DNA of 64,000 bases, from the NCBI GenBank assembly GCA_045803545.1, contig JBJMOW010000004.1:96001-160000 (forward strand). The letters run 5' to 3'. The notes beneath the pieces were generated by a model. It ran no database searches. It was given only the letters and a program-made list of their open reading frames with translations, and was not told the origin of the DNA. The position numbers were made by a program, and so were the translations under genes. This document shows positions 1 through 23,597 of the stretch, one piece after another (position 1 is the first letter of the stretch; each line of letters opens with the position of its first letter). This stretch comes from Gemmatimonadaceae bacterium. GTDB taxonomy: Bacteria > Gemmatimonadota > Gemmatimonadetes > Gemmatimonadales > Gemmatimonadaceae.

Positions 1-563
1 TACGTGTCGAGCTCGCTGACTTCGAGAATGACCTTGAGCTGAGCGTCGCCGCACGCTTCGACCACCGCGCTGATCTCGTCCTGCACCGCGCTGAACTCGC
101 CGGCGAGGAAGAGTCCGCGGTTGATCACCATATCGATCTCGTCGGCGCCGTCACCGACAGCAGTGCGCACCTCGCTTAAACGAAGCTCGAGCGGGCTCTG
201 CCCCGAGGGAAAGGAAGTCGCGACTGATGCGACTTTGATCGGCGTATCTGCAAGCCAACGCGCCGCGTGCTTTACCAGAAATGGGTAGATGCAAACCGCG
301 GCCACCGGCGGAACGTCCGGATCGGCGCTCGGGCGTCTCGCCTTCTGGCACAAGGAGGCGATCTTCCCGGGTGTATCCTTGCCCTCGAGCGTCGTGAGAT
401 CGACCATCGAGACGGCAGTTTTCAGCCCCCAGACCTTGGAGCCCTTCTTGATACTGCGTGTTGTGAACTTGGCGACTCGCTCCTCGATACCAACCTGATC
501 GACGGTACCGATCTCATCGAACAGTTTGCTGAAACTCGAGCGAATTGTCGCGGCAGTAGCCAT
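1..563 (-). CDS. deoC: deoxyribose-phosphate aldolase (5' part; runs off window start)
   Basis: Manual translation: MATAATIR...SMVDLTTLEGKDTPGKIASLCQKA...AAVCIYP...VASVATSFPSGQ...GADEIDMVINRG...LKVILE, typical DeoC motifs. Confidence 0.93.
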   Translation of the reverse strand, partial: MATAATIRSSFSKLFDEIGTVDQVGIEERVAKFTTRSIKKGSKVWGLKTAVSMVDLTTLEGKDTPGKIASLCQKARRPSADPDVPPVAAVCIYPFLVKHAARWLADTPIKVASVATSFPSGQSPLELRLSEVRTAVGDGADEIDMVINRGLFLAGEFSAVQDEISAVVEACGDAQLKVILEVSELDT

Positions 564-19882: not shown

Positions 19883-19958
19883 GAGCGGGAAAATTTTTCC
19901 GGAGCCGCCGAAAAAAAAATTCCGCCAAAAAAAGTTTTTCGTCGCTTCGGAATAATTA

Positions 19959-19987
19959 TTGCGCTGCATCGTTGACGTTTATATACT
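19959..19987 (+). promoter_or_regulatory. sigma70-type promoter of the ATP-grasp/KamA operon
   Basis: TTGCGC-17 nt-TATACT with upstream A/T tracts (19890-19960). Confidence 0.65.
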
Positions 19988-20021
19988 CGGTCCAATGAAT
20001 CGAGCGCGAAATTTTCTGTAG

Positions 20022-21203
20022 GTGTCGATGACTCTCATCGGACTCGCCTACAACCAGAAGCCCGAGCCCACCGAGCTCCCAAGTGAGCTTCCAGAGGCGA
20101 TGCCGCAACGCGGCGAGCTTTCGCGTCCCGATGAAGAGCCTCCAAGTAAAAGTTTTGGTCTTACCGTCGCGGAGCTAACCGCTCGCGATGAGTTTGCCGA
20201 GTGGGATTCGCCGGTGACGATCGCCGCGGTGGAAGCGGCTCTCTCAAAACTTGGCAAGGTCGTTCGCATCGAAGCCACTGAAGAATTTCCAGAGCGGCTG
20301 CGCGCTGCCAGACCGGACATCGTCTTCAACATTGCAGAGGGCTTTCATGGCGTGAACCGAGAGTCGCATGTGCCCGCCATGTGTGAGTTCTTCGGAATTC
20401 CGTACTCGGGCAGCGATCCGTTTACGCTGACGCTCTGTCTCGACAAGGCGCGCGCCAAAGAGACTCTTTCGTTTCACGGCATCCCGACGCCCAGGTTCGC
20501 AGTCGTCGAGAATCTGGCCGACCTGGATGAACGAACGTTCAACCTCGAGCTGCCTCTCTTCATCAAGCCGCTGCACGAAGGATCTTCGAAAGGAATCACC
20601 GACGGCAATCTTTGCTGGGATCGTGATCATCTGCTCGCGCAGACCAAGTTCCTGCTCGAGAACTACCACCAGCCGGTTCTCGTCGAGGAGTACCTGCCGG
20701 GACAGGAGTTCACTTGCGGCGTCCTCGGCAACGGAGATGAGGCTACGGTTCTTCCGCTCGTCGGAATGAACTTCGAGGCGCTGCCGAAAGGAGCGCTACC
20801 GATCTATAGCTACGACGCCAAGTTCGTTTGGGATCGCCCCGAGCGTCCACTGGAAATCTTCGAGTGCCCCGCCAAAATCGGCGGCGATCTCCAGTCGGCG
20901 ATCGAGCGGGTCGTGCTGGACGCCTATCGAGTACTCGGCTGCCGTGACTGGGCGCGGATTGATGTCCGACTCGATGGCGCCGGAAATCCGAACATTCTGG
21001 AAGTGAATCCGCTCCCGGGAATTCTTCCCGACCCCGCGGATAATTCGTGTTTGCCGAAAGCTGCGCGCGCGGCCGGCATCGGTTACGACGAGCTGATTCA
21101 GAGCTGCCTGCGATTCGCGGCGGCGAGACAGGGCGTCGAGCTCGATGATTCAGCGGCCGCCACAACTGCAGTACCGGGCGAGCCAATGCTCGCTGCTGGC
21201 TGA
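20022..21203 (+). CDS. D-Ala-D-Ala ligase-like ATP-grasp ligase 1
   Basis: VFNIAEG, PYSGS, LDKARAK, IKPLHEGSSKGI, ARIDVR, LEVNPLPG; lacks the canonical Ddl GGxSxE start. Confidence 0.88.
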   Translation: MSMTLIGLAYNQKPEPTELPSELPEAMPQRGELSRPDEEPPSKSFGLTVAELTARDEFAEWDSPVTIAAVEAALSKLGKVVRIEATEEFPERLRAARPDIVFNIAEGFHGVNRESHVPAMCEFFGIPYSGSDPFTLTLCLDKARAKETLSFHGIPTPRFAVVENLADLDERTFNLELPLFIKPLHEGSSKGITDGNLCWDRDHLLAQTKFLLENYHQPVLVEEYLPGQEFTCGVLGNGDEATVLPLVGMNFEALPKGALPIYSYDAKFVWDRPERPLEIFECPAKIGGDLQSAIERVVLDAYRVLGCRDWARIDVRLDGAGNPNILEVNPLPGILPDPADNSCLPKAARAAGIGYDELIQSCLRFAAARQGVELDDSAAATTAVPGEPMLAAG

Positions 21204-21227
21204 CAGAGACTAGCGGAGGACGACGCG

Positions 21228-22241
21228 ATGAAAATTGCCCTGCTCTTCGACGGCCTATCTGCGCTAGGTAAGGCACCCGAGGTCCAGCTTCTCGACTCGA
21301 TCGAAGCCGTCGAGACAGCACTGCTGGACTGGGCCGCCGAGGTTGTCCGCGTTCCTGTCAGCAACGACGGTCGATGGGTCGAGCGCCTGCGTCGCGGCAA
21401 GTTCGATCTGGTCTTCAACCTCTGCGAAGGAATCGACGGTGAAGCAGTTCACGAGGCGCGCGTCATCTCTGTGCTGGAGCTGCTCGGCGTACCATTCACC
21501 GGCAGCAGCAGCTGGACGACGGCACTCACCCTCCGTAAAAACGTCGTCAACGGTGTTCTCGATCGCGCCGGTCTTCCGGTTCCGCGCTGGGCCCATATCC
21601 ACCGCGGCGAAAAGATCACCAGCGTTGGATTCCCGGCGATTTGCAAGCCTGTCGCCGAAGATGCCTCGGTCGGCATCGAGCAGCGGTCGGTAGTGCGTAG
21701 CATGCGCGCGCTGAACGCACGCGTGCGAGACATGTTTGACGGCTGGGACGAAGTGCTGGTCCAGCGGTTCATCGATGGCCGCGAGGTGAACGTCGGAATC
21801 GTCGGCGAGGAGGTGATGCCGATCGCCGAGATCGATTTCGCCGACATGCCGAAGGGGATGTGGCACATCGTCTCGTATCGCTCGAAGTGGGAAACAGGCA
21901 GTGACGAAGATCTGGGTGCCAAGCCGAATTGTCCCGCTGACCTGCCTCAAGCTCTCGCGAATGAGCTGACACAGATCGCGCGCACGGCGTGGAGCATCGT
22001 CGGCGGCGAAGGTTATGGTCGTTGCGATTTCCGAATCGATCCGTCTGGACGTCCGTGGCTGCTCGAAGTCAACGCAAATCCGGACATCTCGCCTGGCGCT
22101 GGGCTGGCGCGCATGGCCGGTGTCGCGACGATGAACTACTCGCAGCTTATTCGGAGGATTTGCGATTACGCACTGAAGCGGCCGCTCGACGATCACGTGG
22201 AGCGTTGGACCAAAACACTCAAGTTGTCCGGACTGGGCTGA
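21228..22241 (+). CDS. D-Ala-D-Ala ligase-like ATP-grasp ligase 2
   Basis: VFNLCEG, PFTGS, CKPVAEDASVGI, GRCDFR, LEVNANPD. Confidence 0.88.
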   Translation: MKIALLFDGLSALGKAPEVQLLDSIEAVETALLDWAAEVVRVPVSNDGRWVERLRRGKFDLVFNLCEGIDGEAVHEARVISVLELLGVPFTGSSSWTTALTLRKNVVNGVLDRAGLPVPRWAHIHRGEKITSVGFPAICKPVAEDASVGIEQRSVVRSMRALNARVRDMFDGWDEVLVQRFIDGREVNVGIVGEEVMPIAEIDFADMPKGMWHIVSYRSKWETGSDEDLGAKPNCPADLPQALANELTQIARTAWSIVGGEGYGRCDFRIDPSGRPWLLEVNANPDISPGAGLARMAGVATMNYSQLIRRICDYALKRPLDDHVERWTKTLKLSGLG

Positions 22242-22376
22242 GCCCGGTCTTGCTGATGTCGGTTCGTGAGGTTTGCAGGAATCCGGTGGCGAGTCGTTCG
22301 TGGCCGGAGCATCGCCCCGACCCGAGGACGTTCGGGTCATCTACAACGCCCCTCGCGGGGCCGGAGTGGTAAAAGC

Positions 22377-23546
22377 ATGAGCGATTGGCAGCAAATCATC
22401 AGGAATCAGAGCATCGCTACTCTGGAAAAGCTCGCTGAGAAGTTCGGCCACGACGCAATCGACGTCGATGCGCTGAAGCCGGCGTTCGACAACTTCCAGA
22501 TGCGCCTTACTCCCGCTGCGCTCGAGCAAATCAAGGAAGTGGGCGATCCGATGTGGAATCAGTACATCCCGACGGTCGAAGAGCTCGACGTCGTCGATGG
22601 GGTGATCGATTCGCTGGATGAAGACGGCGATTCGCCGGTGCCGAACATCACGCATCGTTATCCTGACCGCGCGCTTTTCCTCGTCAGTCCGGTTTGCGCT
22701 TCCTACTGCCGCTTTTGCACCCGCCGCAGAAAGGTCGGTGACCCGGAGAAGATTCCTCTCAACCAGTACGAGTCAGCGTTCCAGTACCTGCGCGAACACA
22801 CCGAGATCCGCGACGTCATCATGAGCGGCGGGGATCCGATGATGCTGAGCGACCGCAGGCTGGAGTACCTCTTCCAGCAGCTGCGCGCGATCCCGCACAT
22901 CGAGATCATCCGCATTGGCAGCCGCATCACATCGCACCTGCCGGAGCGGATCACCCCCGAGTTCTGCGAGATGGTGCAGAAATACCATCCGATCTTCATG
23001 AACGTTCACTTCAATCACCCGAGCGAGCTGACGCCCGCCGCTGTCGCCGCGCTCGATCGTCTGTCCAAAGCCGGCGTTTCGCTCGGCTGTCAGACAGTGC
23101 TGCTCAAGGGCGTCAACGACGATCCGAAGGTGATGATGAAACTGATGCACGAGCTGCTCAAGGCGCGCGTCCGGCCCTACTATATATTCATGGCCGACCA
23201 GGTCGCCGGCGGCGAGCATTTCCGGACGACGGTGCAGAAAGGCCTCGAGATCATTCAGGCCCTGCGGGGCTGGACGTCGGGACTGGCAGTGCCGCAGTTC
23301 GTGATCGATTCCCCGGGCGGCGGCGGCAAGGTGCCGCTCTTACCCGAGTACGTCGAATCCATCACCGAAGACGAGGTGGTATTCCGCAACTACGAGGGCA
23401 AGCGGTACGTCTACAAGCAGCCGCATCAAGCTCCTGCGACACCCACAGAAGTCGAGCGGGCAGCGGAACTCGACGTTGTTCCAATCAGCCGTCCCAAAAC
23501 CGCGACGCCACGCAGAACCAAGAGGCGTCGCGCGGCCGGAGAATAA
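22377..23546 (+). CDS. KamA family radical SAM/PLP 2,3-aminomutase (lysine 2,3-aminomutase-like)
   Basis: THRYPDR, CASYCRFCTR, SGGDP, HFNHP, QTVLLKGVND, PLP lysine motif PGGGGK. Confidence 0.93.
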   Translation: MSDWQQIIRNQSIATLEKLAEKFGHDAIDVDALKPAFDNFQMRLTPAALEQIKEVGDPMWNQYIPTVEELDVVDGVIDSLDEDGDSPVPNITHRYPDRALFLVSPVCASYCRFCTRRRKVGDPEKIPLNQYESAFQYLREHTEIRDVIMSGGDPMMLSDRRLEYLFQQLRAIPHIEIIRIGSRITSHLPERITPEFCEMVQKYHPIFMNVHFNHPSELTPAAVAALDRLSKAGVSLGCQTVLLKGVNDDPKVMMKLMHELLKARVRPYYIFMADQVAGGEHFRTTVQKGLEIIQALRGWTSGLAVPQFVIDSPGGGGKVPLLPEYVESITEDEVVFRNYEGKRYVYKQPHQAPATPTEVERAAELDVVPISRPKTATPRRTKRRRAAGE

Positions 23547-23561
23547 CCTGGCCCACCCGAG

Positions 23562-23597
23562 AGAAAGGCCGTCTCTGCGAGACGGCCCTTCTTTTTT
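23562..23597 (+). terminator. intrinsic terminator after the KamA-like gene
   Basis: ggccgtctc-tgc-gagacggcc-cttctttttt. Confidence 0.85.

Follow-up and report, generated by a model that had tools for sequence, protein, structure and literature searches.

A stretch of 64,000 nucleotides from the soil-type genome of a Gemmatimonadaceae bacterium (assembly GCA_045803545.1, contig JBJMOW010000004.1; G000:C2:96001-160000 in our numbering, in which G-numbers denote genomes, L-numbers fetched loci and P-numbers proteins), referred to below as the window, carries an operon of three genes that lie co-oriented on the plus strand downstream of thyX, as read from its open reading frames (ORFs). The first two, ligA (20028..21203) and ligB (21228..22241), encode ATP-grasp ligases with the fold of D-alanine-D-alanine (D-Ala-D-Ala) ligase (Ddl), and the third, kamA (22377..23546), encodes a 2,3-aminomutase of the KamA family that belongs to the radical S-adenosylmethionine (SAM) and pyridoxal phosphate (PLP) enzymes. 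Between ligB and kamA, on the same strand, lies a spacer of 135 nucleotides (nt; 22242..22376), the site that is occupied in relatives by a gene for an acetyltransferase of the GNAT family. A longer ligA frame runs from GTG 20022, but ATG 20028 is the more likely start because several relatives lack that GTG; kamA begins at ATG 22377 and not at GTG 22266 (the match to the C. subterminale lysine 2,3-aminomutase, KAM, structure 2a5h, begins at residue 2). A first-pass annotation of the window had taken the trio for a self-contained unit making a beta-amino-acid peptide. A beta-amino-acid amide pathway stands as the best reading of the operon, in keeping with the lysine-type residues of the mutase and with ligases that are not Ddl, but the operon alone is incomplete: a fourth gene, for the GNAT acetyltransferase, belongs to the system and appears to lie elsewhere in this genome.

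The trio is conserved as a unit, as had been proposed. The order ligA-ligB-kamA holds at all 62 loci long enough to judge among the 80 fetched for gene order, the remaining 18 stopping at a contig edge (one of the gene-order loci, L021, comes from a genome flagged unpublished). The closest named relatives of the window are metagenome-assembled genomes (MAGs) of Gemmatimonadaceae, and in many relatives the cassette, mostly single-copy, keeps a fixed position after thyX. In the window the operon is flanked by thyX upstream and, on the other side, by a CPA2 antiporter gene on the opposite strand; none of these neighbouring genes is a mur, efp/epmA or fermentation gene, in agreement with the earlier description.

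Both ligases have the Ddl fold without Ddl identity. LigA matches PF07478 with 109.7 bits and LigB also matches it, while both fall below every NCBIfam cut-off for Ddl and Van enzymes; the two score 147 and 137 on TIGR01205 (cut-off 245.65), and 179 and 159 on PRK01372 (cut-off 243). Their mutual sequence identity is 30%. The LigA model (pLDDT 85.5) superimposes on DdlB (8evy) with a Z of 33.1 and a root-mean-square deviation of 2.4 Å over 299 residues, the LigB model (pLDDT 90.8) with a Z of 32.8 and 2.4 Å over 293 residues; the three-domain ATP-grasp fold and the ATP/Mg ligands are what they share with Ddl and Van enzymes. Unlike Ddl, they have no mur or fts neighbours and both lack the GGxSxE motif, as an alignment to the canonical Ddl of the same genome (C2:329227-330009, with GGTSSE and ALHG motifs intact) confirms, and glutamate replaces the histidine of ALHG in 121 of 125 LigA-type and 19 of 21 LigB-type distant domains. 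The translations also contain the differing loops SYDAKF/EVNPLPG and SYRSKW/EVNANPD, and the initial observation that ATP-grasp motifs are kept while substrate-proximal loops diverge was correct.

Positions in both ligases were mapped onto the genome's own Ddl; the N-terminal EWD motif of LigA cannot be aligned to it exactly owing to a disordered insert at residues 17-50. The ATP/Mg ligands are retained in LigA (K142, K182, R312, D314, E327 and N329, each in 117-124 of 125 distant domains) and in LigB (K104, K140, R265, D267 and N282, in 18-19 of 21), and together with the Ddl fold they suggest that both enzymes work through acyl phosphates. LigA has an acidic N-terminal pocket formed by E60, D62, E106 and E114 along with R113, conserved respectively in 113, 112, 121, 121 and, for R113, 121 of the 125 domains. 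In the acceptor loop it has the same serine and glycine as Ddl, the serine being S342 (100 of 125), whose Ddl equivalent we take to hold the acceptor carboxylate. In LigB this loop is altered (NANPD), with alanine at the Ddl serine in 15 of 21 distant domains and cysteine or aspartate at the glycine.

The phylogeny of the ligases agrees with these differences. In a tree of 44 rows, from which a motif filter had removed L266, L274, L277, L280 and L281, the nine rows annotated as Ddl or scoring above its cut-off make up a clade with 100/100 support that shuts out both LigA and LigB. LigA branches (99/97) together with four KamA fusions and the N-terminal halves of six fusions of LigA to LigB, and LigB joins the C-terminal halves of the LigA-LigB fusions weakly (68/95). 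Automatic naming of such proteins as 'D-alanine-D-alanine ligase', together with the shared fold, would favour a housekeeping explanation in which spare D-Ala-D-Ala ligases stand beside an EpmB or a lysine-fermentation mutase; the genome's canonical Ddl, however, sits inside the very clade that excludes the operon's ligases, and this explanation, already largely refuted, retains next to no probability. The third Ddl-like ligase of the genome is an observation in its own right: encoded at L081 8472-10492 (G000:C2:1137472-1139492, minus strand), it is 35% identical to LigA, carries EDAS and NxNP like LigB, overlaps an upstream HEAGH-motif gene (no NCBIfam match) and lies just before kbl/tdh-like genes.

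The best 150 distant LigA relatives include 18 LigA-LigB, three KamA-LigA and one LigA-KamA fusions, a count that leaves out four 'B-A' fusions with weak LigB scores. Two ligase-GNAT fusions (P0237 and P0246) were likewise set aside, as their GNAT is of the PF13302 type and they do not group with LigB. Fusion in 18 of these 150 relatives, the adjacency of ligA and ligB at all 62 full-length loci and the fact that Ddl works as a dimer all fit a single heterodimeric or fused enzyme that makes one amide bond, with one of the subunits mainly structural or regulatory. Such an arrangement is distinctly unlikely, given that LigA and LigB each keep the ATP/Mg ligands and conserved pocket residues of their own. 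A prediction of the LigA-LigB complex, for which controls were not folded, reached a score of 0.16 against a mark of 0.32, a value that weighs on neither side.

The mutase can be narrowed to lysine as its substrate from the residues that it keeps. KamA scores 277 bits on the family model TIGR00238 (cut-off 199), and among the specific mutase models AblA (TIGR03820) gives the best score at 422 (cut-off 525), the match ending at model position 365 of 417, followed by the glutamate (390; 650), arginine (318; 600) and EpmB (227; 369) models. The CxxxCxxC motif (C107/C111/C114) and the PLP lysine K318 in PGGGGK are present in the translation, as originally read. Against KAM (2a5h, E 1e-106), R116, D274, D311 and K318 align to R134, D293, D330 and K337, and Asp293 and Asp330 are presumably the contacts for the epsilon-amine of lysine. 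The counterpart of D293 occurs in 109 of 109 KamA rows, which were not de-duplicated, and that of D330 is present in the 87 that fit its pattern, the other 22 falling outside it; the arginine mutase reference BlsG has threonine at the D330 position. The 13 cassette KamAs form a clade of their own (98/98), apart from the AblA, BlsG and EpmB-like references, in a tree whose deeper branches lack resolution and which includes no glutamate mutase sequence. This separateness, and a score below the AblA cut-off, would leave room for a mutase acting on arginine, glutamate or ornithine, whose product would not be a beta-lysine derivative. With AblA the best-scoring specific model and both aspartates retained, the second at a position where BlsG has threonine, there is only a small chance that the substrate is one of these.

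A role in the beta-lysylation of elongation factor P (EF-P) shares with the operon a KamA-family mutase, and kamA is the only gene of that family detected in the genome. The system nevertheless differs from EpmB/EpmA/EF-P in each component. EpmA was not found in the genome (93% complete), where the top match to its model TIGR00462 is a 528-codon frame for a full-length lysyl-tRNA synthetase, below the cut-off; EF-P (G000:C4, minus strand) has the loop HHTPGNLRA, with asparagine at the usual modification site; and the EpmB score is the 227 against 369 given above. Because EpmA is not found and the EF-P loop reads PGN, an EpmB role, with or without a distant EpmA, is very unlikely, and the same two facts speak against the mutase half of the housekeeping explanation. 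The beta-lysine 5,6-aminomutase domain PF09043, expected for lysine fermentation, has no match in the genome, and its control likewise matched in 0 of 14 genomes.

Ten genomes with ligA, some of them cut by contig ends, lack the cassette KamA, and eight of the ten hold a divergent KamA-like gene that keeps both aspartates in its aligned copies and in G143 lies directly behind the GNAT gene. Such detachment of the mutase gene in some ligA genomes fits a freely diffusing beta-amino acid. Several further KamA relatives were encountered. A long-branched KamA-like subfamily (L134 3903-5363, L136, L138, L151 and L152) has CxxxCxxC and both aspartates, with DVPF/YVGK in place of PGGGGK. In G120 the gene of this subfamily has, by eye, CoA-transferase, aminotransferase and aldehyde dehydrogenase neighbours, as annotated around Deinococcus kamA. 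On a Thioflavicoccus mobilis plasmid (L234 6691-12172) a KamA gene faces a Ddl-like ligase gene in a diamino-acid setting, accompanied by SbnA, an ornithine-cyclodeaminase-like gene and a diaminobutyrate aminotransferase.

The fourth component of the system is a small GNAT acetyltransferase (a family of 160-185 residues) that in more distant relatives is encoded between ligB and kamA. It lies inside the operon at 13 of the 62 gene-order loci, and of 20 regions retrieved from the phylum at large, 18 show the order ligA-ligB-GNAT-kamA and the other two hold an unrelated 47% KamA. The same association emerges from an even sample of 151 Gemmatimonadota genomes, in which ligA is present in 74, the GNAT family in 75 and the cassette KamA in 64: every one of the 74 ligA genomes has the GNAT, every one of the 64 cassette-KamA genomes has ligA, and the single GNAT genome beyond the ligA set is G134, with a divergent solo gene. 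About half of the sample lacks the cassette. A metagenome scan yielded close relatives only, and no four-gene cassette was found in the plasmid records examined; gene context was viewed within the phylum, and the range beyond it rests on fusion proteins and Atlas leads. In two genomes single cassette genes (ligA at G096:C57 and kamA at G136:C4) come in two or three pieces, through frameshift or assembly error.

The operon in the window has the same three genes in the same order as the four-gene cassette of other Gemmatimonadales, but its GNAT is not among them. By tblastn no remnant of a GNAT gene was detected in the 135-nt spacer, and the single match elsewhere in the genome, outside the window, is the stand-alone P0124 (G000:C2:901219-901773, minus strand), which lies on the window's contig, 782 kb from the operon and beside sucB-lpdA. 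P0124 is the only member of the cassette GNAT family found in the genome, and it likely stands in for the missing operon gene. The genome has all four gene families, with the GNAT outside the operon. Comparison with G050, a genome of the same genus, gives 65-88% identity for the ligases and the mutase of the window and 37% between P0124 and the GNAT encoded in the G050 operon; this G050 GNAT shares 53-70% identity with most of the family's other in-operon members. In the genus sample the two forms never occur together. Across 91 genomes, 26 have a GNAT 36-41% identical to P0124 and directly beside kamA or ligB, 49 have one that is 53-100% identical and located on another contig or far off, none has both and 16 are without a match; when four genomes flagged unpublished are removed, the 87 that remain divide into 26 in-operon, 46 stand-alone, 0 both and 15 none. 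The stand-alone copies, which adjoin sucB-lpdA or lie in other contexts, group in a single clade (100/97), separate from that of the in-operon genes (95/93).

The pattern recurs. In a quick tree of LigA and LigB, GNAT-less operons occupy at least three separate places: the window's own clade; G219 and G182, within the genus's in-operon part; and the L048-L054 group, beside a GNAT-bearing locus. Two further GNAT-less loci are metagenome contigs. Genomes tested from all three places carry the stand-alone clade; for the L048-L054 group a GNAT of that clade was found in four out of six. The distribution is compatible with an acquired copy having displaced the operon gene repeatedly and equally with two old paralogs having been lost reciprocally. 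In six loci of that group (L048 10260-10640, L049-L052 and L054) the ligB-kamA spacer is a conserved non-coding stretch of 340 nt with 88% column identity, several predicted hairpins and little covariation; L048, L051 and the kamA region of the window gave no match in Rfam.

If the stand-alone GNAT were unrelated to the operon, as was at first supposed, the three genes would be complete and their product unacetylated; identity of 37% to the in-operon GNAT of G050, the sucB-lpdA or other contexts and the existence of solo members of the family are compatible with that. An unrelated gene should, however, sometimes coexist with the in-operon form, and it does so in none of the 72 genus genomes with a match, a pattern that recurs in at least three lineages; an unacetylated three-gene pathway is accordingly improbable. 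That each genome keeps one GNAT form argues that the acetylation step is needed, and the natural swap suggests that it is required.

Several observations weigh on the other side. By the approximately unbiased test, a shared origin of the stand-alone copies and the in-operon GNATs of the genus is just short of rejection (p 0.0502). The genomes are kin, which makes the counts non-independent, and the majority are MAGs with gaps, no GNAT match having been obtained in 15 of the 87 genus genomes and in two of the six from the L048-L054 group. Elsewhere (G134; an Aquisphaera plasmid) GNATs of the wider family occur alone, without the cassette, and the stand-alone enzyme could do another job. With regard to the mutase, the shortfall of KamA on the lysine model AblA (422 against 525) belongs to the same side of the balance.

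Gene content, co-occurrence, the folds and the retention of ATP/Mg ligands in both ligases are the established part of the picture. The proposal that we place first, tentatively and with slightly less than even confidence, is that the trio and the GNAT 782 kb away make a small acetylated beta-lysine peptide through two ligations, perhaps as a stress or compatible solute. KamA would convert lysine to free beta-lysine. LigA, with its acidic pocket, would bind the diamino acid, form the acyl phosphate and couple it to an amino acid, an acceptor proposed because LigA keeps the Ddl serine that is taken to hold the acceptor carboxylate. LigB would then form a second amide with an acceptor lacking that carboxylate, or extend the LigA product, and the GNAT would acetylate a free amine, leaving a small, charge-reduced beta-lysine peptide. 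Framed more broadly, as a widespread, undescribed primary pathway in which two Ddl descendants without a wall role make an acetylated beta-lysine peptide or macromolecule tag, and which depends so heavily on acetylation that the in-operon GNAT was lost, at least three times within one family, only where a foreign-clade copy is present, the interpretation is possible yet somewhat more doubtful.

The acceptor could instead be a macromolecule, beta-lysyl or acetyl-beta-lysyl being put on a protein, a peptidoglycan precursor or an envelope polymer. LigB has lost the serine and glycine of the Ddl acceptor site, as a bulky acceptor would require, and a single-copy cassette at a fixed site after thyX resembles core metabolism more than a secondary-metabolite island. 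Against it, no target or carrier gene adjoins the operon, the cassette is missing from about half of the phylum sample, and a LigA relative at about 46% identity, known from its sequence without gene context, clusters with a protein of a Nitrososphaerales archaeon, an organism that would be without peptidoglycan. On balance a macromolecular acceptor is unlikely, and a small peptide is preferred.

The small acetylated peptide would place the system between two known ones. The AblA/AblB (KamA-YodP) pathway, of which an annotated pair is present in a Bacillus record, produces N-epsilon-acetyl-beta-lysine, which serves methanogens and some bacteria as an osmolyte. It likewise pairs a lysine 2,3-aminomutase-type enzyme with a GNAT acetyltransferase, whereas the cassette adds two ATP-grasp ligases, its KamA is below the AblA cut-off and its GNAT has no significant likeness to AblB (E 0.11); an AblB-type acetyltransferase (TIGR03827) was not found in the genome, while the control matched in 6 of 14 genomes. 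The likely stress-solute role is borrowed from AblA/AblB by analogy only. In the blasticidin S cluster, BlsG is annotated together with an adjacent ATP-dependent carboxylate-amine ligase; BlsG acts on arginine, and the ligase joins the beta-amino acid to a nucleoside acceptor. Here too a radical-SAM 2,3-aminomutase would supply a beta-amino acid to an amide-forming ligase, but that system belongs to an antibiotic cluster and works on arginine, with a single ligase and a nucleoside as acceptor, whereas the window has lysine-type residues, two Ddl-like ligases, a GNAT and no such cluster. By analogy, the operon would work like AblA/AblB (mutase and acetyltransferase) crossed with BlsG and its ligase (mutase and amide ligase).

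This is a conserved, uncharacterised pathway gene set whose chemistry is of known kinds, and its new element is the natural acetyltransferase swap. The cassette occurs in 74 of 151 Gemmatimonadota genomes and in fused forms in distant relatives, yet no described product was found in the literature. An abstract-level search surfaced no paper on the cassette; an amidoligase survey cited in PMC4431377 may already predict the operon (Iyer et al. 2009; PMC3268129). If the proposed pathway is true, a beta-amino-acid metabolite or modification of common occurrence would be added to those known, and the Ddl fold would gain two ligase specificities. The swap itself is a natural experiment, in that an operon lost its acetyltransferase and the genome holds exactly one distant substitute; it defines a minimal four-enzyme set and offers a complementation system, and an annotation confined to the operon would miss the acetylation step.

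Short pieces of the locus with 0-1 differences, from ligA, from kamA and from the spacer that separates ligB and kamA, occur in four soil RNA runs (contigs); these had been identified by means of the window stretch itself and also contain a thyX piece, and DNA carry-over is possible. Upstream of ligA, a sigma70-type promoter pattern, TTGCGC-17-TATACT (19959..19987, plus strand), follows A/T tracts at 19890-19938. The promoter claimed by the first-pass annotation is weak, with 8 of 12 consensus bases and a score below the threshold of a promoter scan that called none, but the pattern recurs, TTGCRY-16..18-TATACT being found, with varying spacer length, in 73 of 174 related loci that have upstream DNA. 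In 29 of the 174 (L076, L078, L191 and L208 among them) a sigma54-type TGGC(A/G)Y-N5-TTGC lies just downstream of the sigma70-type boxes; no sigma54 site was found in the window's ligA promoter region.

A putative 8-codon ORF, MNRARNFL* (19995..20021, plus strand), starts 7 nt past the -10 box and is possibly leaderless; its TAG overlaps a GTAGG box ahead of ligA. Among the 73 loci with the promoter pattern, 64 have an ATG or GTG exactly 24 nt ahead of the TAG with the frame open, two have the GTAGG box without a start and seven lie outside the box pattern, a conservation that may merely reflect conserved 5' and ribosome-site sequence. Two further loci carry a 9-codon version. At the other end of the operon an intrinsic terminator-like element follows kamA (23567..23597, plus strand), and ORFs, motifs and hairpin are all in place as first described: a terminator scan and folding identify a hairpin at 23567-23587 followed by a T run, with a z of -4.6 and 0 of 200 shuffles folding as well.

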